Part shown: positions 4,245-47,820 of the stretch, in pieces | Layout of the letters: every line of letters starts with the position of its first letter | How positions within the stretch are numbered: the stretch's first letter is position 1 | Origin: an uncultured Eubacteriales bacterium | Lineage (GTDB): Bacteria; Bacillota; Clostridia; Oscillospirales; CAG-272 | Assembly (NCBI GenBank): GCA_934401725.1 | Contig: CAKRSS010000002.1 | Span: forward strand, 1 to 64,000 | Length of the DNA: 64,000 nt | Direction: 5' to 3' | Notes under the pieces: model-generated | Seen by the model: only the letters and a program-made list of their open reading frames with translations | Told to the model about the DNA's origin: nothing | The model's database searches: none | Program-made: the position numbers and the translations under genes

Positions 4245-5336
4245 TGACATATCAAAAACGTAATTGATATTCTTGACCTGTCAGTCGGCGAGATTGACCG
4301 GCTTATCGAGACCGCGGAGGACATTTCGGCAAATCCTCAGAAATACGATGACGCGATGAAGCACCGCACGCTTGCGGCGCTGTTTTTCGAACCGTCGACG
4401 CGTACGCGGCTCAGCTTTGAGTCGGCGATGCTGTCGCTCGGCGGCAATGTCATAGGCTTTTCCGACGCCGCCACCTGCTCGGCGACCAAGGGAGAAACGC
4501 TGGCGGACACCGTCACCGTCGTGTCGGGCTACGCCGACATTATCGCCATGCGTCACCCCAAAGAGGGCGCGCCGATTGTGGCGTGCGAGCATGCATATGT
4601 TCCCGTCATAAACGCTGGCGACGGCGGGCATTATCACCCCACTCAGACGCTCGCCGACCTGCTTACGATAAAGCATGAAAAGGGAAGGCTCGACAACCTG
4701 ACCGTCGGCTTCTGCGGAGACCTCAAGTACGGCAGAACCGTCCACTCACTCATAGACGCCATGGCGCGCTATCCCGGTATTCGCTTTGTCCTGATTTCTC
4801 CGGACGAGCTGAAGCTGCCCGATTTTGTGCTCGACGGCACCATCCGGCGGCACGGAATTCCGTTTGTCGAGAGCGCCTCGCTCGAGAGTGAGATAGGCGG
4901 GCTTGACATTCTGTACATGACGCGCGTCCAAAAGGAGCGCTTTGACGACCTTGGGACTTATGACCGGCTTAAAGACGTCTACATCCTGACCGAGGAAAAA
5001 ATGAAGATGGCCAGGTCCGACATGATAGTCATGCACCCGCTGCCTCGCGTCAACGAAATTCCCGCATCCATCGACCGCGACCCGCGCGCCTGCTATTTCA
5101 AGCAGACCGTCAACGGTAAGCTGATGCGCATGGCGCTCATACTAAAGCTCTTTGCCGAGCGCGAGCTGCCCGACGTTGACAGAAGAAAGGGAAGCCCCGC
5201 CGCGTACGACGGAGTGTGCCGGAATGTGCACTGCATCACCGCCTCTGAGCGCTGGCTCGAGCCCGGCTTCTACCGTGACCCGGACGGCGTCCTCCACTGC
5301 GCCTACTGCGACGCGGTTGTCACTGAGAACGAATAA
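4244..5336 (+). CDS. pyrB: aspartate carbamoyltransferase catalytic chain with a C-terminal PyrI-like zinc domain; apparent frameshift at the 5' end
   Basis: STRTR and HPTQ motifs are present. A continuous frame runs from 4248 with an ATCase-like N-terminus (NVIDILDLSVGEIDRLIETAED) but has no in-frame start codon. An ATG at 4244 overlaps the pyrE stop but is one base out of frame across an A5 run at 4254-4258. The C-terminal ~60 aa carry CxxxxC...CxxC with NVHCITASE, matching the PyrI zinc domain. Confidence 0.8.
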
Positions 5337-5462: not shown

Positions 5463-7286
5463 ATGAAAGAAGTAAAATCCCCACGCAAGCCGTTGTTGTA
5501 TTACTACATTATCGTTCTGATGGTGATACTGTTTTTTAACATGGTAGTCTCGCCGCTGCTGACGAGCGTAAAGGTGCAGGAGGTCGATTACGGAACCTTC
5601 ATGAAGATGATTGAGGAGAAGAACATCGGCAGCGTCGAAGTCAATGACTCCGAGATAGTCTTCACAGACAAGGAAGAAAAGCAGATATACAAGACGGGCG
5701 CTATGAACGATCCCGGCCTTACCGACCGTCTTTATGGTTGTGGAGCGCCATTCTCCAGCAGTACTGATAAGACCATGTCCCCGCTGCTAAGTCTCTTCCT
5801 GACTGTCATACTTCCTATTCTGATATTCTTCGGAATCGGACAGTATATGAGCAAAAAGCTGATGTCGCAGGCGGGCGGTCCCAACGCCATGGCCTTCGGT
5901 ATGGGTAAGAGCAACGCCAAGGTTTACGTTCCTTCGACGGACGGAATAAAGTTTGACGATGTCGCGGGCGAGGATGAGGCCAAGGAGAGCCTCGCCGAGG
6001 TCGTCGACTACCTGCACAACCCGCATAAATACACCGACGTCGGCGCGTCCATGCCCAAGGGCGTGCTGCTCGTAGGCCCTCCCGGCACAGGTAAGACTAT
6101 GCTCGCAAAGGCTGTCGCAGGCGAGGCGGGCGTGCCGTTCTTCTCCATTTCCGGCTCTGATTTTGTCGAAATGTTCGTCGGCATGGGCGCGTCCAAGGTG
6201 CGCGACCTGTTCCGTCAGGCCAAGGAGAAAGCCCCCTGCATCGTCTTTATCGACGAGATAGACGCGATAGGCAAAAAGCGCGAAGGCCAGCTCGGCGGCA
6301 ACGACGAGCGCGAGCAGACGCTCAACCAGCTCCTCACCGAAATGGACGGCTTTGAGGGCAACAACGGCGTCATAATACTCGCCGCCACCAACCGTCCCGA
6401 GTCGCTCGACCCGGCGCTGACGCGTCCCGGACGCTTTGACCGCCGGGTTCCCGTTGAGCTACCCGACCTTGCCGGACGCGAGGCCATTCTCCGCGTTCAT
6501 GCAAAGAAAATCAAGACTGCGGACAATGTTGACTTCCACACCATCGCCCGCATGGCGTCCGGAACCTCCGGCGCCGAGCTTGCGAATATCATAAACGAAG
6601 CGGCGCTGCGCGCCGTGCGCAGCGGGCGCACGGTCGTTGAGCAGGCAGATCTCGAGGAGAGCATCGAGGTTGTTATCGCGGGATACCAGAAGAAGAACGC
6701 CATCATGACGGATGCCGAAAAGAAGGTCGTGGCGTATCACGAGATAGGTCACGCGCTTGTGGCCGCGCTTCAGACTGATTCCGCGCCGGTTCAGAAGATA
6801 ACCATCATCCCGCGCACCTCGGGCGCGCTCGGCTATACGATGCAGGTCGAGCAAGGCGACAAGGTGCTGATGACCAAAAAGGAAATCGAGAACAAGATCG
6901 CCACCCTCACGGGTGGTCGCGCGGCAGAGGAGCTTATTTTCGGCGAGATTACGACCGGAGCCTCCAACGATATTGAGCAAGCAACCAAGCTCGCCCGCGC
7001 CATGATAACCCGCTACGGCATGACCGACGAGTTCGACATGGTGGCCATGGAAACGGTGACGAACCAGTACCTCGGCGGCGACACCACGCTTGCGTGCTCG
7101 GCAGATACGCAGAAGGAGATTGACCGAAAGGTTGTCGAGACGGTGCGTACACAGCACGAAAAAGCACGCCGCCTGCTCTCCGAGAATCGCGGCAAGCTCG
7201 ACGAGCTGGCATCCTTCCTCTACGAGAAGGAAACCATAACCGGCAGTGAATTCATGACCATCCTCAAGTCGGAGGAGGGTGAGTGA
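5463..7286 (+). CDS. ftsH: ATP-dependent zinc metalloprotease FtsH
   Basis: 607 aa. N-terminal TM helices, Walker A (GPPGTGKT), AAA second region of homology, and an HEIGHAL zinc site. Confidence 0.95.
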
Positions 7287-7852: not shown

Positions 7853-7889
7853 GCCCCGGAGCCGATTGCGGCGGCTCCGGGGCGTTTTT
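7853..7889 (+). terminator. intrinsic terminator
   Basis: Hairpin GCCCCGGAGCC...GGCTCCGGGGC followed by TTTTT. Confidence 0.85.
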
Positions 7890-7901: not shown

Positions 7902-7930
7902 TTGACAAGAGGACGGGGAAGAGATATAAT
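7902..7930 (+). promoter_or_regulatory. consensus sigma-A promoter for the islet operon
   Basis: TTGACA, a 17-nt spacer, then TATAAT. A GGAGGA RBS follows 40 nt downstream, ahead of the ATG at 7976. Confidence 0.7.
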
Positions 7931-7975
7931 AATATTCGAAGATATTGACATTTTGGATTTTGGAGGATTATATCT

Positions 7976-10399
7976 ATGACCGGCGCACAGATTGGCATTA
8001 TACGCTTTCTGCTTATCGCGTCTTTGGCTTTCATTGTTGTTCCGATAATTGTGTATATTGTCAGGGACATTACGTCAAGACTGTCTGATGGTTCGGGGCG
8101 GAATCTTGGTGTGAGTAAAATGCTCAAGTTCACCGCCTGCCTGCTTGGATCTATCTGGTGCCTGCGCTATGCAGTAGGATTTTATGCTATTGTCGTCGGA
8201 AATGATGGTGCCCCTACACTTACGTGGGGGGAAGAAATATTCAACAGCATCGTTCACACGCTGCAGACCTTCAGTATGGACGAGGACTACACCGAGTATA
8301 TCATAGACGGCAAAGATATGCTTCGGGCAGTGGCAGGAGGCAGCGGGACATGGCAGGATGTGTACGGAATATATGCGTCCGTGCTTAATTTTATCGCACC
8401 CGTTGTCGGAGGAGCTATCATATTCGAGATTCTTGCAAGCATATTTCCAAAAGTCAGGCTGTGGCTGCTTTCGTTTGCGGTTTGGCGTAAAAAGTATTAT
8501 TTCAGCGAGTTGAATGAAGCATCAGTTGCGCTGGCGACGAGTGTTTGCCGTGCAAATAAAGGCCTTTGGCGGCGACCGATTATAATTTTTACAGATTCCT
8601 ACGTGAATGCGCAGGAGGAGGGCGACTCCGAGATGCTCCTTGAGGCAAAGTCACTCGGCGCTATTTGCGTTAAAGACGATCTCTCACATATTGTCAAAGC
8701 AAGGCATGGCGAGCGCAGCTTTTTTCTCATGGATCAGGCGCCGGTCGGTAACATACAGTCCCTGACCACACTGTCCGACAATCAGAACTGCAAATATCTT
8801 AAAAATGCAGAGATATACATGTTCATGACCAATGATGCGTATGTTCAGGTGGAGCAAAATGTGCGGAACCGATTGAAGAATGATATGAAATTCGAGAATG
8901 GGGAATTACCGGTGTTCATACCGGTAAACAGTTACCGAAATCTTATCTCAAACATGTTGGTGGACATTCCGCTTTACGAGCCGTTGATAAATAAGGTAAC
9001 TGTCGGCAAGACTGTCGATCTTGTCCTGACCATTCTCGGTGTCGGTGATATCGGTACGGAAATGTTTCTGTCGTCGTATTGGTTTGGCCAGATGCTTAAT
9101 TGCAGGCTTACCATAAATATAGTTTCCAATGAGCTGGAAGATACCTTCTGGAATCGCATAGATTATATCAATCCGGAGATACGCAGGACAACTATGGAAA
9201 ACGATTCAATACTTGAGTATAACAGTCGCAAGGATCAATCTCCCGTTTACTGCAAGGTCAACTATGTCTACTGCGACATAAATTCGTCAGAATTTGTAAA
9301 GAGGCTGAATCCGGGAGAGGGGAGTCTCCTTGATACAGACTATTTCTTTGTGGCACTTGGCTCGGACAAGGAAAATCTGTCTGCTGCAAGCACACTGCGC
9401 AGATATGTAGGCAAATATCACCTTAGCGAAGGCTGTAATCGTCAGACGGTAATCACATACGTTGTATACAACCCCGAGCTGTCCGAGATTCTCAACAGAA
9501 CGAAATACTATTTTTATTCGTCTGATGGCTATAAAAATTCGGTTGGCGATACCGAGGCGGATGTGTATATGTGCGCGGTCGGAAGTCTCCATGAGGTGTA
9601 CGGCGCGCGGAATGTATTCATGACAGATCACGAGGACAATGCTCAGGCCATTGATCTGAGACGCCGTTCAGAAAGCGAGGACAGGCAAACATTCGAAGCC
9701 GTCAGTGACTATGAGAAGAAAAGGCACGGAACAAAGGCAAGCACTGAGCGCGAGCAACGACGGATCAGAGCGGCGGTGCACAGCAAGCGTATGAATGATG
9801 ATTATCAGCATTGGGCGAATCTCGCACGTACCATGCACCGCAAGTACAAGCTGTTTTCCATGGGGCTTCTGACAGGCTGTTCTATTTTTGACGAGGCACG
9901 GTCGCCGCAGTACGAAGTTGCCGCGGTCAAAGAGGCGTACAAGGTCATATATGAAGGCGGTAAAAACCACGAAAACGCAGCTGAGCATGACAAATGGCTG
10001 AGACTTATGCACAGCATGTCGTGGCTCGAGCATAGACGCTGGTGCGCGTTTACACGTGTTAAGGGTTTCCAGGGAACGGATAAATACAGCTTATACATTG
10101 AGAAAGAGGAGTCCCACAGGCAAATGGATCTTAGATTGCACCCTTGCTTAGTCGAGTGTGGGAAACAGGGAATACGCGCAAAGATCAAGGATGACGGAAC
10201 TATTGATGACAATGCAATTATCGAGTACCCCGACAAGACCCCGCTTGACAGACTGGATGAATTATCGGATCACGTTAAGCCAATAATCATTGAAATCAAG
10301 CAAAGGCAGAAGGATGATAAAGGTAGCAAAGATGATCCTAAGCCTAACGATCTTGACTTCAAGGTGAGCGATTACCCTTTCAATGATTTTAAGCTTTAA
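7976..10399 (+). CDS. 807-aa membrane protein: MthK/RCK-like channel homolog with a divergent filter, plus Rossmann (KTN-like) domain(s) and a large C-terminal domain
   Basis: N-terminal layout: TM helix, then TM / putative pore helix with T-x-x-T-F-S-M-D-E-D-Y / TM. The cytoplasmic region has a GxGxxG motif (LVLTILGVGDIGTEMF) followed about 20 aa later by an acidic residue ending a strand (TINIVSNE), typical of NAD-binding KTN/TrkA_N domains. About 45% GC in a ~60% GC genome. Confidence 0.55.
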   Translation: MTGAQIGIIRFLLIASLAFIVVPIIVYIVRDITSRLSDGSGRNLGVSKMLKFTACLLGSIWCLRYAVGFYAIVVGNDGAPTLTWGEEIFNSIVHTLQTFSMDEDYTEYIIDGKDMLRAVAGGSGTWQDVYGIYASVLNFIAPVVGGAIIFEILASIFPKVRLWLLSFAVWRKKYYFSELNEASVALATSVCRANKGLWRRPIIIFTDSYVNAQEEGDSEMLLEAKSLGAICVKDDLSHIVKARHGERSFFLMDQAPVGNIQSLTTLSDNQNCKYLKNAEIYMFMTNDAYVQVEQNVRNRLKNDMKFENGELPVFIPVNSYRNLISNMLVDIPLYEPLINKVTVGKTVDLVLTILGVGDIGTEMFLSSYWFGQMLNCRLTINIVSNELEDTFWNRIDYINPEIRRTTMENDSILEYNSRKDQSPVYCKVNYVYCDINSSEFVKRLNPGEGSLLDTDYFFVALGSDKENLSAASTLRRYVGKYHLSEGCNRQTVITYVVYNPELSEILNRTKYYFYSSDGYKNSVGDTEADVYMCAVGSLHEVYGARNVFMTDHEDNAQAIDLRRRSESEDRQTFEAVSDYEKKRHGTKASTEREQRRIRAAVHSKRMNDDYQHWANLARTMHRKYKLFSMGLLTGCSIFDEARSPQYEVAAVKEAYKVIYEGGKNHENAAEHDKWLRLMHSMSWLEHRRWCAFTRVKGFQGTDKYSLYIEKEESHRQMDLRLHPCLVECGKQGIRAKIKDDGTIDDNAIIEYPDKTPLDRLDELSDHVKPIIIEIKQRQKDDKGSKDDPKPNDLDFKVSDYPFNDFKL

Positions 10400-10725
10400 T
10401 GAGCAGAAGGGAAAACATACAAATGGGATATAAACCAAACCCGGTTGATACCAGCAATATCCGTTTGCCGGATTCTCTAATCGAGCTGACTGAAAAAATA
10501 GCCGAAAACGTCCATGAAAACTGGTCGTACGGGCGTGTGTCAGAGGGTTGGAGCTACGGCGAGCAGCGTGACGATTCAAAAAGAACGACGCCTTGCCTTG
10601 TCCCATATGACGAGCTGAGCGAGGAAGAGAAGAATTATGACAGACATACTGCGATAGAAACGCTCAAACTTATAATTGCGCTGGGTTACAGAATTGAAAA
10701 GGACACGGACAAATACATCTCATGA
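10399..10725 (+). CDS. stand-alone RyR (ryanodine-receptor Ryr repeat) domain protein
   Basis: 108 aa matching the bacterial RyR domain consensus (AENVHENWSYGRVSEGWSYGEQRDDSKRTTPCLVPYDELSEEEKNYDR...LGYRI). Its start overlaps the upstream stop (TAATG). Confidence 0.65.
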   Translation: MSRRENIQMGYKPNPVDTSNIRLPDSLIELTEKIAENVHENWSYGRVSEGWSYGEQRDDSKRTTPCLVPYDELSEEEKNYDRHTAIETLKLIIALGYRIEKDTDKYIS

Positions 10726-10808
10726 ATTAATGAGGGCTATACCCGGTAGTTGTAAAATAAAGAGTCCCGGACAGAATCAAAACGATTTTTGGTGGAACTC
10801 TTGTTCAC

Positions 10809-11030
10809 TCAACTTCGATTCCAATGGTTGAGCTTTGGCAGTTGCGCTTCGAAGAAAGCCCGCGCTTCCTCCGGCGGCCAATTGTCGTTTGACATGTGTT
10901 TTACGAGAAAATCGATCAGCTTCTCAAGGCTTGTGTAAACAAATTTGCCGTCGGTATAGCACCATTTGCAGTACTCCTCGTTGAATGTGCCGTCCGGCTC
11001 TTTGCTGATTGTCGAGTCGTCCAGCGGCAT
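10809..11030 (-). CDS. small zinc-ribbon domain protein
   Basis: 73 aa with CKWCY and a Cys-pair architecture common to small Clostridia zinc-ribbon proteins. Low GC. Confidence 0.45.
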   Translation of the reverse strand: MPLDDSTISKEPDGTFNEEYCKWCYTDGKFVYTSLEKLIDFLVKHMSNDNWPPEEARAFFEAQLPKLNHWNRS

Positions 11031-11341
11031 TCGAATATGACATCTTTTGCTTCCATAATTTTCATCACCTCGTGAATATTATATCACTGCCTTACAGCAA
11101 AGTAAAGCAACCCGCTGTTGCTAAAATTATTGCCCAAAATATCGCGGCGACGTTATCTTATTCTACCGGTACATCCACAGTAATGATGCCCGTTGCAAGC
11201 CCTGCGCTCTCCGGCAAGAGCGTGAGTGAGAACGTGCGATAGTTCATGTGTTATAATGAGACGCTTGTCATTTTCCGCAGCGGCGGATGTTGTTTCCTGA
11301 ATGAAAATCGGCGGCAAGCGCCGCCGGGTACCGGAGGTAAT

Positions 11342-11848
11342 ATGAGGTTACTATTTGAGATGGATAAACGCGATTACGATAATTGCACCAATAAATTCGT
11401 GCGCAATTCGGCAAGAAGCATAATAATCCGCGACAAAAGGCTGGCAATGATACACAGCTTAAAATACGACTATTACAAATTTCCGGGCGGCGGAATTGAG
11501 GGTGAGGAATCACCCGTCAGTGCGATGATACGCGAAACCCGCGAAGAGGCGGGCCTGGCGGTAAAGCCCGAAACGGTAAAAGAATACGGCTATGTGCATC
11601 GCGTACAGAAAAGCAATAGGGACGCCTCCGAATGCTTTGCCCAGGATAACTATTACTACCTTTGCAACGTTGAGAACGCAACTGTTGCACAGCACCTTGA
11701 AAAATATGAAGCAACCGAAAACTTCACTTTGGAGTATGTTGAACCGCTCATTGCAATTCAAAAGAATCGTAGTATCCCGCATGATTCCTTAATGCTTGAG
11801 CGAGAAGCGCGGGTTATCGAAATGCTGATTGACGAGGGACTGCTGTAA
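11342..11848 (+). CDS. NUDIX hydrolase
   Basis: Nudix box GGGIEGEESPVSAMIRETREEAGL. The ATG at 11342 is preceded by GGAGGT. Low GC. Confidence 0.8.
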   Translation: MRLLFEMDKRDYDNCTNKFVRNSARSIIIRDKRLAMIHSLKYDYYKFPGGGIEGEESPVSAMIRETREEAGLAVKPETVKEYGYVHRVQKSNRDASECFAQDNYYYLCNVENATVAQHLEKYEATENFTLEYVEPLIAIQKNRSIPHDSLMLEREARVIEMLIDEGLL

Positions 11849-11861
11849 TTACAGGCTTCTA

Positions 11862-12533
11862 TCATCCGCATTTCTTGCAGACGCGGCTCTTACCCGCCGC
11901 GACAGCGTCGGACTGCGTGCCGCTTATGATATCCGTCGAATTTTTGAGTGCACTGCACCCGCGGCTGACATGCCAGACGCTGCCGCTATTTGTCCAATAA
12001 ACGGTGGCTCCGTTCGGTATTGTGGTAAAGATGTCGGGCTCGAGGGTCTCGCGCGCAGTCGTGGTTGAGCCGGTCGTAGTTTCGGCCGGAGCGGTAGTAG
12101 TTTCAGCCGGAATGGTCGGAGTTGTGGTCTCGCCCTGCGGCGGGGCTACGGTGTTATCACGGTCATATTCCGTGGTTGTCACTTCGGAATGCTTGGTGGT
12201 CTCTTCGGGAGTGGTGACGGTATCGGGAGCTTTGGTTGTCCCGGGTGTCGTGGTATTGGGGGTAGTCGTGGTCTCGGGGACTGTGGCGGTGTCGGGGGTG
12301 GTCGTCACTTTATCGGTTTCGGGCTTGGGAGCCGTCGTTTTGGCCGCTTCCTTTGAGCTTGCCGCCGCGGCAGATGACGACGCCAGCTCGCGCGATATTT
12401 CGGCAACATAATCCGGAGTAAGCGTAACGCCGGACGAATCGGATGTATCCTTAAAGTCGTCGTATACGAACGAGCAACCGGTGAACATGTACATCAGAAT
12501 AATCAACGCAGTGAGATTTCTCAAAACTTTCAT
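11862..12533 (-). CDS. lipoprotein with a long Thr/Pro-rich linker and a small C-terminal Cys-containing domain
   Basis: Signal peptide plus lipobox (LIILMYMFTGCS). About 120 aa of T/P/E low complexity. The C-terminal region reads VYWTNSGSVWHVSRGCS...RVCKKCG. Confidence 0.6.
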   Translation of the reverse strand: MKVLRNLTALIILMYMFTGCSFVYDDFKDTSDSSGVTLTPDYVAEISRELASSSAAAASSKEAAKTTAPKPETDKVTTTPDTATVPETTTTPNTTTPGTTKAPDTVTTPEETTKHSEVTTTEYDRDNTVAPPQGETTTPTIPAETTTAPAETTTGSTTTARETLEPDIFTTIPNGATVYWTNSGSVWHVSRGCSALKNSTDIISGTQSDAVAAGKSRVCKKCG

Positions 12534-46303: not shown

Positions 46304-46335
46304 AGGGGCAGTTCGAGATATTGTGATTTGATCGC

Positions 46336-46406
46336 GCTTGTATATACCCCATGATATGGTTGGGAAGTTTCTACCGGATAACCGTTAATTGTCCGACTAT
46401 GAGCAG
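46336..46406 (+). ncRNA. purine riboswitch aptamer (guanine class)
   Basis: UAUA-P2 with GAUAUGG loop, J2/3 AAGUUUCUACC, P3 GGAUA...UGUCC, then GACUAUG with the discriminator C. The match to the xpt G-box is nearly position for position. Confidence 0.85.
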
Positions 46407-46454
46407 ACAGAGAATTGCCCCGCGAGAACTGCATTTTTGCCGTTCCCTTGACGA

Positions 46455-46497
46455 CCGGCGTCTGCGCATAGAAGCTGCAGGCGTCGGTTTTGTTTTG
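46455..46497 (+). terminator. riboswitch expression-platform terminator
   Basis: An 11-bp stem (CCGGCGTCTGC / GCAGGCGTCGG, including 2 GU pairs) followed by TTTTGTTTT. Confidence 0.6.
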
Positions 46498-46548
46498 GCT
46501 TTACGGGCTATGCCCCTGAGCATATATAAAAATCATGGAGGAACAATC

Positions 46549-47820
46549 ATGTTCAAAAAAATCCTGTCACTTGCGCTTGTTGTCGTAATGTGTGCTTCAC
46601 TCTGCCTGGCTATGGTGTCCTGCTCTGACAATCAAGATCAGGGTGACGACATCATCGAATCCCCCCTGCCTCTGATCGAGACCAAATCCACGGTCACTGT
46701 GCCGGCCGACTTCAAGATCGGTTTCATTTTCCTGCACGACGAGAACTCCACCTACGACGCCAACTTCATCAACGCTGCAAAGAGAGTTCAGAAGGCGCTG
46801 AATCTGAAGGACGAGCAGATTGTTCTTAAGACAAATATTCCTGAGGACGATACCTGCTACAGCACCGCTATTGACCTTGCTGACCAGGGCTGCAATATCG
46901 TGTTTGCTGACTCCTTCGGTCACGAGGGCTACATTCTCCAGGCCGCTAAAGAGCGTCCAAACACCCAGTTCTGCCACGCAACCGGTACCCGCGCTCACAC
47001 CGAGGGTCTGGCTAACTTCCACAACGCGTTCGCTTCCATCTACGAGGGCAGATACCTCGCCGGTATCGCCGCTGGTATGAAGCTCAACGAGATGATCGAG
47101 TCCGGCAAGATCACCGCAGACAAAGCCGTCATGGGCTACGTCGGTGCGTACACCTATGCCGAGGTTATTTCCGGCCTTACTTCCTTCTACCTTGGCGCAA
47201 AGTCTGTTTGCCCCAGCGTTAAAATGAAGGTTCAGTTTACCGGCTCCTGGTACGACGAGGCTAAGGAGCAGGAGGCTGCAAATGCTCTTATCAGCAAGGA
47301 CTGCGTCCTCATCAGCCAGCACGCTGACTCCATGGGCGCTCCCTCTGCTTGCGAGATGAAGGGTATCCCGAATGTTTCCTACAACGGCAGCACCGTTTCC
47401 GCTTGCCCCGACACATTCATCGTTTCCTCTGCCATCAACTGGACCCCTTACTTCCAGTACATCATCGAGTCCTACGTCAAGGGCGAGGCAATTGCTGCTG
47501 ACTGGTGCGGCGGTATCGACGAGGGCTCCGTTGTCCTGAGTGACATCAACGGCAAGGCCGCTGCCAAGGGCACCAAGGAGAAGATTGCCGAGACCATCAC
47601 CGCTTTGAAGAACGGCACTCTCAAGGTCTTCGACGTCAACACCTTCACCGTCAACGGCGAGAAGCTGACCTCCTACATGGCTGACGTCAACTTTGACGAG
47701 AACTACACCAAGGATACCGAGGCCATCAAGAACGGCGCGTTTGCCGAGTCCTCTGACCGTTCGGCTCCTTACTTCGATCTCACCATCGACGGTATTGAGT
47801 TCCTGAACTCGATGTATTAA
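46549..47820 (+). CDS. BMP-family (PnrA/Med-like) nucleoside ABC transporter substrate-binding lipoprotein
   Basis: Signal peptide plus lipobox (LAMVSCSD). BMP-family fold. GGAGGA RBS. Confidence 0.8.
   Translation: MFKKILSLALVVVMCASLCLAMVSCSDNQDQGDDIIESPLPLIETKSTVTVPADFKIGFIFLHDENSTYDANFINAAKRVQKALNLKDEQIVLKTNIPEDDTCYSTAIDLADQGCNIVFADSFGHEGYILQAAKERPNTQFCHATGTRAHTEGLANFHNAFASIYEGRYLAGIAAGMKLNEMIESGKITADKAVMGYVGAYTYAEVISGLTSFYLGAKSVCPSVKMKVQFTGSWYDEAKEQEAANALISKDCVLISQHADSMGAPSACEMKGIPNVSYNGSTVSACPDTFIVSSAINWTPYFQYIIESYVKGEAIAADWCGGIDEGSVVLSDINGKAAAKGTKEKIAETITALKNGTLKVFDVNTFTVNGEKLTSYMADVNFDENYTKDTEAIKNGAFAESSDRSAPYFDLTIDGIEFLNSMY

Follow-up and report, generated by a model that had tools for sequence, protein, structure and literature searches.

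The gene considered here lies on contig CAKRSS010000002.1 from an uncultured Eubacteriales bacterium, within a stretch of 64,000 nucleotides (nt) hereafter called the window. It occupies 7976..10399 on the forward (+) strand, ends with the stop codon TAA at 10397-10399 and encodes a channel-like membrane protein of 807 amino acids (aa), which is present in identical form on 8 public contigs. The open reading frame (ORF) and the motifs singled out in an original prediction, made by inspection of the sequence, are all present, including HTLQTFSMDEDY at residues 94-105 and HSMSWLEHRRWCAF at residues 679-692. The second gene of interest, on the same strand at 10423..10725, specifies a single-repeat protein of 100 aa that belongs to the ryanodine receptor (RyR) domain family PF02026 (E 5.6e-37; 126 bits against a cut-off of 27.4). 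The exact 100-aa protein occurs on 15 contigs. An alternative start at 10399, overlapping the upstream stop by one base, would give a protein of 108 aa.

Upstream of the channel-like gene, a sigma-70-type promoter of the form TTGACA-17 nt-TATAAT is located at 7902..7930 (+), with 12/12 matches in a consensus scan, and is followed by a ribosome-binding site, GGAGGA, at 7962..7967 (+), 8 nt before the ATG. Both expression signals named in the original prediction are thus in place. The promoter is the sole perfect match in the region, where the total of promoter-like sites equals the chance expectation. Further upstream, at 7854..7889 (+), the DUF308 gene that precedes the promoter is closed by a GC-rich, terminator-like hairpin, read from the sequence as CCCCGGAGCC, a 9-nt loop, GGCTCCGGGG and a T-run; the consensus scan does not list it because its loop exceeds the 8-nt limit of that scan.

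The 807-aa protein had been regarded as an orphan, a view that is no longer tenable. A word-indexed search returns 438 relatives, which are ∼45–52% identical, 750–800 aa in length and all unnamed, those with an organism name deriving from Clostridia metagenome-assembled genomes. An exhaustive profile search extends the family to 2,061 representative clusters (50% identity) at E<=1e-3, with 586 at E<=1e-30, and a scan of species-representative genomes places relatives in 141 genomes, all of them Clostridia of gut or rumen origin. The carriers include Oscillospiraceae, Acutalibacteraceae and Ruminococcus, and one isolate, Ruminococcaceae bacterium FB2012. A second family, of shorter paralogs of ∼597 aa with at least 974 relatives, is found in some of the related loci; it is homologous to the 807-aa protein from the membrane region to the C-terminus (hhalign probability 100%, E 6.9e-46, 562 columns) and its members end in LEHRRWNAYMRSEGY...MHHDLVDYSSL..EKRKD. 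Their layout repeats the pore-like, tandem-RCK and RyR-like order of the longer protein, but with a more canonical RyR repeat.

This large assemblage, with ∼2,000 clusters at 50% identity in addition to the ∼600-aa paralogs, is currently recognized by no domain library. Scans of the 807-aa protein against Pfam, NCBIfam and PADLOC give no match, and the Pfam models Ion_trans_2 and TrkA_N, which had been put forward as those to search with, do not match it at E<=1. Searches of the PDB sequences with phmmer and with profiles yield chance matches only (tweety, NuoK and a G-protein-coupled receptor, GPCR) and no channel, and a scan of viral contigs reveals no relatives. In PADLOC-DB 2.0, neither the 807-aa protein nor its RyR partner nor the short paralogs find a match; the PADLOC matches are restricted to neighbouring genes in other loci, namely a CARF-PDDEXK nuclease and generic AAA+ models. 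When the 50 longest family members are scanned with Pfam for extra fused domains, only RyR (3 members), one HTH_17 and one weak DpaA_N are detected.

Membrane module and filter position

A single-chain AlphaFold2 model, built on a 120-sequence alignment, reaches a predicted local distance difference test (pLDDT) score of 88.4 and a predicted template modelling (pTM) score of 0.87 over the full length, with a pLDDT of 92 for the membrane module. Hydropathy indicates hydrophobic segments at about residues 11-29, 56-74 and 139-165, and the model places N-terminal helices at 3-36, 46-74, 84-98, 105-120 and 124-156. Taken together, the two methods give the N-terminal transmembrane (TM) helix and the outer, pore-like and inner helix arrangement that had been anticipated. 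The first helix, designated TM0 (residues 3-36; 7982..8083, +), is an extra element whose N-terminus is predicted to lie outside, on the basis of the modelled helix, hydropathy and the net charge of +4.9 in the loop that follows. It precedes a pore-like module (residues 46-166; 8111..8473, +), which comprises an outer helix (46-74), a pore-helix-like segment (84-98), a filter-like loop (99-104), an extra helix (105-120) and an inner helix (124-156/166) bearing a conserved A-P-x-x-G-G-A, within which P142-x-x-G145-G146 is nearly invariant. Over 145 homologs the net charge is +4.9 for the loop 30-50 and +3.8 for the stretch that follows the last helix, and residues 75-132 are acidic. Positive-inside analysis accordingly puts residues 75-132 outside and the RCK domains inside, and this charge distribution fits the topology of a channel.

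The position that corresponds to the selectivity filter is occupied by the motif QTFSMDEDY (residues 97-105; 8264..8290, +). The signature of K+ channels, T-[VI]-G-[YF]-G, is absent and the sequence reads T-F-S-M-D-E-D instead. The replacement is conserved in the family alignments: the signature Q-x-F-[ST]-[MIL]-D-x-D is nearly invariant in one of them (A1), and in a second (A2) conservation amounts to 85% for F99, 93% for S/G100, 88% for D/E102, 85% for E/D103 and 94% for Y/F105. The short paralogs carry the motif as QxFTIDxD. The notion of a degenerate filter is therefore upheld as far as the loss of GYG is concerned, with a conserved acidic motif in its stead. Rings of acidic residues at such a position are typical of Ca2+-permeable channels, and helix 105-120 presumably takes the place that the second pore helix has in Nav, Cav and TRP channels.

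At the level of the fold, the predicted membrane module shows an outer helix, a re-entrant pore helix and an inner helix with a cytoplasmic C-terminus, and superposes on the MthK pore over 78/82 residues at 2.4 A. About 27 of its top 60 structural matches are tetrameric P-loop cation channels, among them K2P, CNG/SthK, Nav, Cav, CatSper, TRP and PKD2. The remainder, which include GPCRs and NuoK/Mrp subunits, display similar Z scores but much larger root-mean-square deviations; as non-channel matches attain similar Z scores, the structural evidence for a channel fold is moderate and not decisive. Foldseek matches to NKCC/KCC transporters and OGT were set aside as low TM-score noise. The proposal of a channel-like pore module consequently stands as a statement about fold, whereas the residue-by-residue line-up with TxxTVGYGDY finds no statistical support in Pfam, PDB profile or hhalign comparisons: with hhalign, the N-terminal and middle profiles score a probability of <=0.4% against KcsA, MthK, NaK and NavAb, whose sequences were entered by hand.

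Predicted tandem RCK domains and RyR repeats

The cytoplasmic part of the model consists of two alpha/beta units (173-330 and 346-548), a helical region (550-711) and a long helix (759-782). The first unit is an RCK-like domain (residues 173-330; 8492..8965, +) in which the GxGxxG feature is missing and a conserved FSELNxxS is found in its place. The second is an RCK/KTN Rossmann domain (residues 346-548; 9011..9619, +) with the motif G355-x-G357-x-x-G360 and an acidic residue, E386, at the end of strand beta-2, where TINIVSNE spans residues 379-386. Conservation of these positions reaches 100% for G355, 99% for G357, 97% for G360 and 96% for E/D386. The Rossmann signature of KTN/RCK type, already noted in the original prediction, is thus confirmed in its glycines, its conserved beta-2 acidic residue and its predicted fold; the suggestion of more than one such domain is borne out in that two are predicted, but the first has a degenerate glycine motif. 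A helical linker region (residues 550-660; 9623..9955, +) follows in the AlphaFold model, with lower confidence at ∼560-600.

In structural comparison the cytoplasmic core comes closest to the tandem RCK/KTN proteins, the best matches being TrkA, the CASTOR gating ring, GsuK, KtrA, MthK and BK, and in Foldseek the whole chain is co-linear with Slo1 and Slo2.2 at a probability of 1.0. At the sequence level, TrkA_N (PF02254) matches paralogs below threshold (E 0.005-0.08) at the region equivalent to the second RCK domain, and one short paralog carries a precomputed PF02254 match.

RyR repeats have long been viewed as decorations of eukaryotic channels, with an unclear function. The C-terminal domain of the 807-aa protein had been described as lacking any recognizable motif, and a Pfam scan of the protein indeed returns no RyR match. 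A bridge through the paralog profiles, in contrast, leads to a different assignment. The C-terminus of the 807-aa protein aligns with that of the short paralogs (hhalign 96.5%, E 7.7e-10), which in turn aligns with the RyR partner alignment (hhalign 86.7%, E 4.3e-6); hence the domain thought to be unknown is most likely a divergent RyR repeat. The best PDB match of the short-paralog profile (A4) is an RyR1 repeat chimera (E 0.0027), followed by bacterial chains annotated as 'putative ryanodine receptor', all at the same position, and Pfam RyR matches the paralog of locus L079 (E 0.019). On these profile comparisons, residues 668-782 (9977..10321, +) would constitute an RyR repeat with an 11-residue insert and a hairpin insert. 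They contain WLEHRRW (H686, W689), HPCLVEC (H722), the inserted hairpin and then an LDxLDxLS helix, and both the HxxW and the His-Pro motifs are kept across the family (H686 97%, W689 100%, H722 98%, P723 77%).

PF02026 domains form dimers with an adenine-nucleotide pocket, and phage members of the group cleave or sequester 2'/3'cADPR, a cyclic ADP-ribose, by means of H75, W78, H100 and D117 (preprint 10.64898/2026.05.28.727677). H686, W689 and H722 of the divergent repeat correspond to the adenine- and phosphate-contacting residues described for RyR-domain proteins in the same study (10.64898/2026.05.28.727677). The equivalent of D117 of the phage protein RyDEP cannot be placed in this repeat because of the inserts. 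In the small partner, which retains the His/Asp dyad, H39, W42, T64 and D81 (108-aa numbering) align by spacing with RyDEP H75, W78, H100 and D117. Among 40 partners H39, W42 and D81 do not vary, and the position of the phosphate-contacting His is taken by Thr in 36 of the 40.

Linked genes and the context of the window

The neighbourhoods of the channel-like gene were compared across 80 related loci, 45 of which have complete flanks. In about half of the 80, the next gene downstream on the same strand is an RyR gene, and in one the two are fused; 10 family members possess fused canonical RyR repeats, one of them with two. Within the complete-flank set the RyR gene comes directly downstream in 23 loci and a long AAA protease gene is present in 18; at least one of these accompanies the channel-like gene in 32 and neither does so in 13. 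The pairing with an RyR protein, raised in the original prediction as a point to follow among homologs, is therefore frequent, the more so when fusions are considered, but it is not obligatory.

The long protease, of ∼1,150–1,300 aa, combines AAA_2, AAA and Peptidase_M41 domains and has no TM segment. It is encoded next to the channel-like gene in 30 of the 80 loci, with a gap of 4–54 nt or an overlap, and in all 27 examples examined HExxH and both Walker A motifs are preserved (representatives, given as locus and coordinates, are L010:2419-5964, L061:2518-5958, L029:1994-5926 and L073:7632-11183). By reading of the sequence the N-terminus appears Clp-N-like. For an FtsH-type protease, two AAA rings and the lack of a membrane anchor are an uncommon combination in their own right. 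The PADLOC matches of this protein to IetA, DolB and TRIP13 reflect generic AAA+ similarity and were not taken as membership of those systems. In some loci that encode the long form of the channel-like protein, a short paralog gene is also present and precedes that of the long protease; instances of the short form are L079:4057-5859, L018:636-2492, L031:662-2464 and L043:656-2476.

Unbiased clustering of the flanking ORFs brought to light a further associate, a protein of ∼427 aa that shares an operon with the channel-like gene in 15 loci and is encoded at any distance in 20 of the 80. It is a full-length CARF and PD-(D/E)xK nuclease of the Can2/Card1 type (Pfam Card1_endonuc; PADLOC CARF4--CARF_PDDEXK, E 2.3e-35), exemplified by L073:11251-12531, L010:858-2186 and L040:2082-3467. 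The genes follow one another on one strand throughout in several orders, including nuclease-protease-channel-RyR, nuclease-channel-RyR and channel-RyR-protease-nuclease, and this variety favours functional linkage over inherited synteny. A spot check of the nuclease loci disclosed no CRISPR or cyclase genes within 6 kb; the other neighbours seen there are a SIR2 gene, phosphoesterases, a helicase and peptidases. The SIR2-family gene (L022:4964-5701; PF02146, E 5.5e-51) is situated directly upstream of the channel-like gene and is preceded by genes for a calcineurin-like phosphoesterase, an ORF without a known identity and the CARF nuclease. SIR2 enzymes consume NAD+, and this neighbour may be relevant to a ligand of the ADP-ribose type. 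In two loci (L009:4571-9577 and L011:5968-10879) a tandem pair of family members is followed by the RyR gene, beyond which come a GFO/IDH/MocA-type oxidoreductase and the CARF nuclease.

Of these genes, the window contains just the core pair of channel-like gene and RyR gene; neither CRISPR-like repeats nor a CARF nuclease nor a further copy of the family turned up when it was searched for them. The neighbouring NUDIX, Zn_ribbon_2 and DUF308 genes, a helix-turn-helix regulator and a lipoprotein-like ORF were discarded as partners, as they are not conserved beside the homologs. A canonical membrane FtsH of 607 aa is encoded two genes upstream, at 5463-7286, and in relatives it is the FtsH-like long protease that is directly adjacent; the upstream FtsH may be a remnant of this linkage or stand there by chance. 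The G+C content of 8001-12000, which takes in the channel-like, RyR, Zn_ribbon_2 and NUDIX genes, is ∼0.47 compared with ∼0.54 for the remaining window, a drop that might point to horizontal acquisition. The lipoprotein-like ORF (11862-12533, - strand) encodes 223 aa, is rich in Thr and Pro with a Cys-rich C-terminus, and has no Pfam match; on contig L002, which bears an identical 807-aa gene, the gene at this position encodes 476 aa, so that its length varies between strains. Elsewhere in the window, a purine riboswitch aptamer (46318-46419, +; RF00167, 70 bits) lies at the start of an ORF of ∼1.5 kb (stop-to-stop 46327-47817), and an aspartate carbamoyltransferase catalytic chain (4356-5336, +) is apparently fused to a PyrI-like C-terminal zinc domain (weak PF02748 match).

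Proposed function and likeness to known systems

With a confidence slightly better than even, we read the gene as encoding a subunit of a ligand-gated tetrameric cation channel, which would be gated by nucleotides, would not be selective for K+ and might be part of a signalling or defence module. Each subunit would enter the membrane through an N-out TM0 and continue into a module of outer helix, pore helix and inner helix, with the acidic motif F-S-M-D-E-D substituting for T-V-G-Y-G at the selectivity-filter position. As in GsuK, BK and CASTOR, the cytoplasmic gating ring would be composed of eight domains, each subunit contributing two RCK domains, the second of which would retain a putative dinucleotide-binding GxGxxG...E site. 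The divergent RyR repeat attached to this ring would pair with the co-translated small RyR protein, which is fused in some relatives, and the paired repeats would create a two-repeat adenine-nucleotide pocket resembling that of Repeat12 (R12). Binding or turnover of an adenine-containing nucleotide would then open a non-K+-selective and possibly divalent-permeable pore. The ligand is probably an adenine nucleotide. As a CARF nuclease and a soluble AAA+ protease adjoin many relatives, the channel may be the membrane component of a stress or defence module that signals through nucleotides. A more specific scenario, which is tentative and of low probability, envisages a membrane-permeabilising effector of an undescribed nucleotide-second-messenger module: a signal of the ADP-ribose or oligoadenylate type would be sensed or hydrolysed by the RyR pockets, one in the channel and one in the small partner, which would thereby open a Ca2+/cation-permeable pore, and the channel would act alongside the Can2-like CARF nuclease and the soluble double-ring FtsH-like protease.

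The reading as a ligand-gated channel draws on the confident models, the co-linear Foldseek alignment with Slo1 and Slo2.2, the positive-inside topology, the conservation of the filter-position motif in both paralog families and of GxGxxG and E/D386, the RyR-type contact residues of the C-terminal domain, the downstream or fused RyR genes, and the linkage to the CARF nuclease and the long protease in varied gene orders. A number of observations weigh against a nucleotide-gated channel. Sequence-level similarity to any channel was found nowhere in the Pfam, PDB profile and hhalign searches, the extra helix 105-120 between filter loop and inner helix is unlike K+ channels, and a pore axis or ring is not seen because the models are monomers only. 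The RyR assignment of the C-terminus depends on the paralog bridge, as a direct hhalign comparison with RyR gives only ∼20%, and the RyR partner is absent from about half of the loci. The CARF nuclease and the long protease are absent from the window, whose context is one of housekeeping genes, and an enzyme that would make the signal was not found, the spot check of CARF-linked loci revealing no cyclase, TIR or Cas10.

The main rival, which we consider unlikely, is that the protein descends from a channel but does not conduct, and works as a membrane-anchored nucleotide sensor or scaffold. Its degenerate pore would do no more than anchor the protein or provide a core for oligomerisation, and soluble proteins, for example the TM-less AAA+/M41 protease or the CARF nuclease, would be recruited to the membrane or regulated there by its RCK and RyR assembly. 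The loss of the canonical filter is compatible with such a role, and so is the TM-less long FtsH-like protease, whose gene adjoins or overlaps the channel-like gene in roughly one locus in three: with HExxH and both Walker A motifs preserved in every example examined it is probably active, and it would need targeting. Yet the filter-position loop and the inner-helix P-x-x-G-G are among the best-conserved parts of the membrane module in two paralog families, a strong conservation that would not be expected of a mere anchor, and many loci, that of the window included, lack the protease.

A second alternative, an ordinary K+ homeostasis channel of the MthK/GsuK type with a drifted filter, no signalling role and an RyR gene as an unrelated neighbour, must be judged improbable. 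In its favour, structural comparison ranks K+ channel pores and the RCK/KTN proteins of K+ transport highest, and the context of the window is chromosomal and housekeeping, but a GYG-type filter occurs nowhere in the family and the motif that replaces it is acidic and conserved rather than drifting. Moreover, a probable RyR repeat is built into the protein, canonical repeats are fused in 10 members and the linkage with the CARF nuclease is recurrent. The idea of a membrane-tethered NAD(P)-dependent enzyme, with Rossmann domains that are catalytic and not regulatory, is very improbable, given that no dehydrogenase family matches by sequence and that the first domain is devoid of a nucleotide motif.

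Were the second-messenger effector scenario correct, the protein would be the first prokaryotic channel controlled through an RyR repeat and would provide a bacterial precedent for the nucleotide site of animal RyR Repeat12. The family joins a probable RyR repeat, a channel-like pore and a predicted RCK ring in bacteria, often with a second repeat in trans or fused and often beside a nuclease of the cyclic-oligoadenylate type. As a simple experimental system in bacteria, it would allow tests of whether RyR repeats can gate ion flow by nucleotides and of how non-K+ filters arise in RCK-gated channels, and it raises the question of an uncatalogued signalling or defence module in gut Clostridia. 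The components are known, but neither the libraries nor the literature searched contain a description of their combination: a degenerate-filter pore, tandem RCK domains, an internal RyR repeat and an RyR partner, linked to genes for a CARF nuclease and a soluble double-AAA M41 protease. No publication linking RyR domains to TrkA/RCK or to CARF was found in that literature.

GsuK, the dual-RCK, multi-ligand-gated K+ channel of Geobacter sulfurreducens (PDB 4gx0; PMC3510474), differs from the 807-aa protein in its canonical K+ filter and lacks the extra N-terminal helix, the post-filter helix, the RyR repeat and the RyR partner that are all found with the latter; sequence similarity between the two is not detectable. 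The plant nuclear-envelope channels CASTOR/POLLUX/DMI1 (PDB 6o6j/6o7a; PMC6697748) likewise have a tandem-RCK gating ring, but they are eukaryotic and Ca2+-gated, with more TM helices, another filter sequence and no RyR repeat. The MthK/TrkA/KtrA group is defined by TrkA_N (PF02254), whereas the 807-aa protein fails both the TrkA_N and the Ion_trans_2 models and has a degenerate glycine motif in its first domain. The membrane effectors of cyclic-nucleotide defence systems, such as the type III CRISPR ancillary proteins Cam1, Csx23 and CorA, are what we take to be comparable systems. The resemblance resides in a membrane protein with a cytoplasmic nucleotide-sensing module, as predicted here, beside a Can2/Card1-type CARF nuclease (15-20/80 loci). 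Unlike these effectors, the 807-aa protein has no CARF or SAVED domain, no PADLOC match and no phage homolog, and no CRISPR array, Cas10 or other cyclase was seen nearby in the search of the window and the spot check of CARF-linked loci.

The closest parallel for the RyR component is the PF02026 family, which embraces animal RyR Repeat12, bacterial single-repeat proteins (PDB 3nrt, 6uag) and the phage protein RyDEP. The downstream gene is a bona fide member, whereas the internal repeat of the 807-aa protein, with its 11-residue and hairpin inserts, has diverged beyond what Pfam recognizes. An RCK ring is not part of animal RyR pores, which sets them apart from the layout predicted here. Single repeats dimerise and animal RyRs contain two tandem repeats, an arrangement matched in this family by one repeat in cis and one supplied in trans or by fusion.

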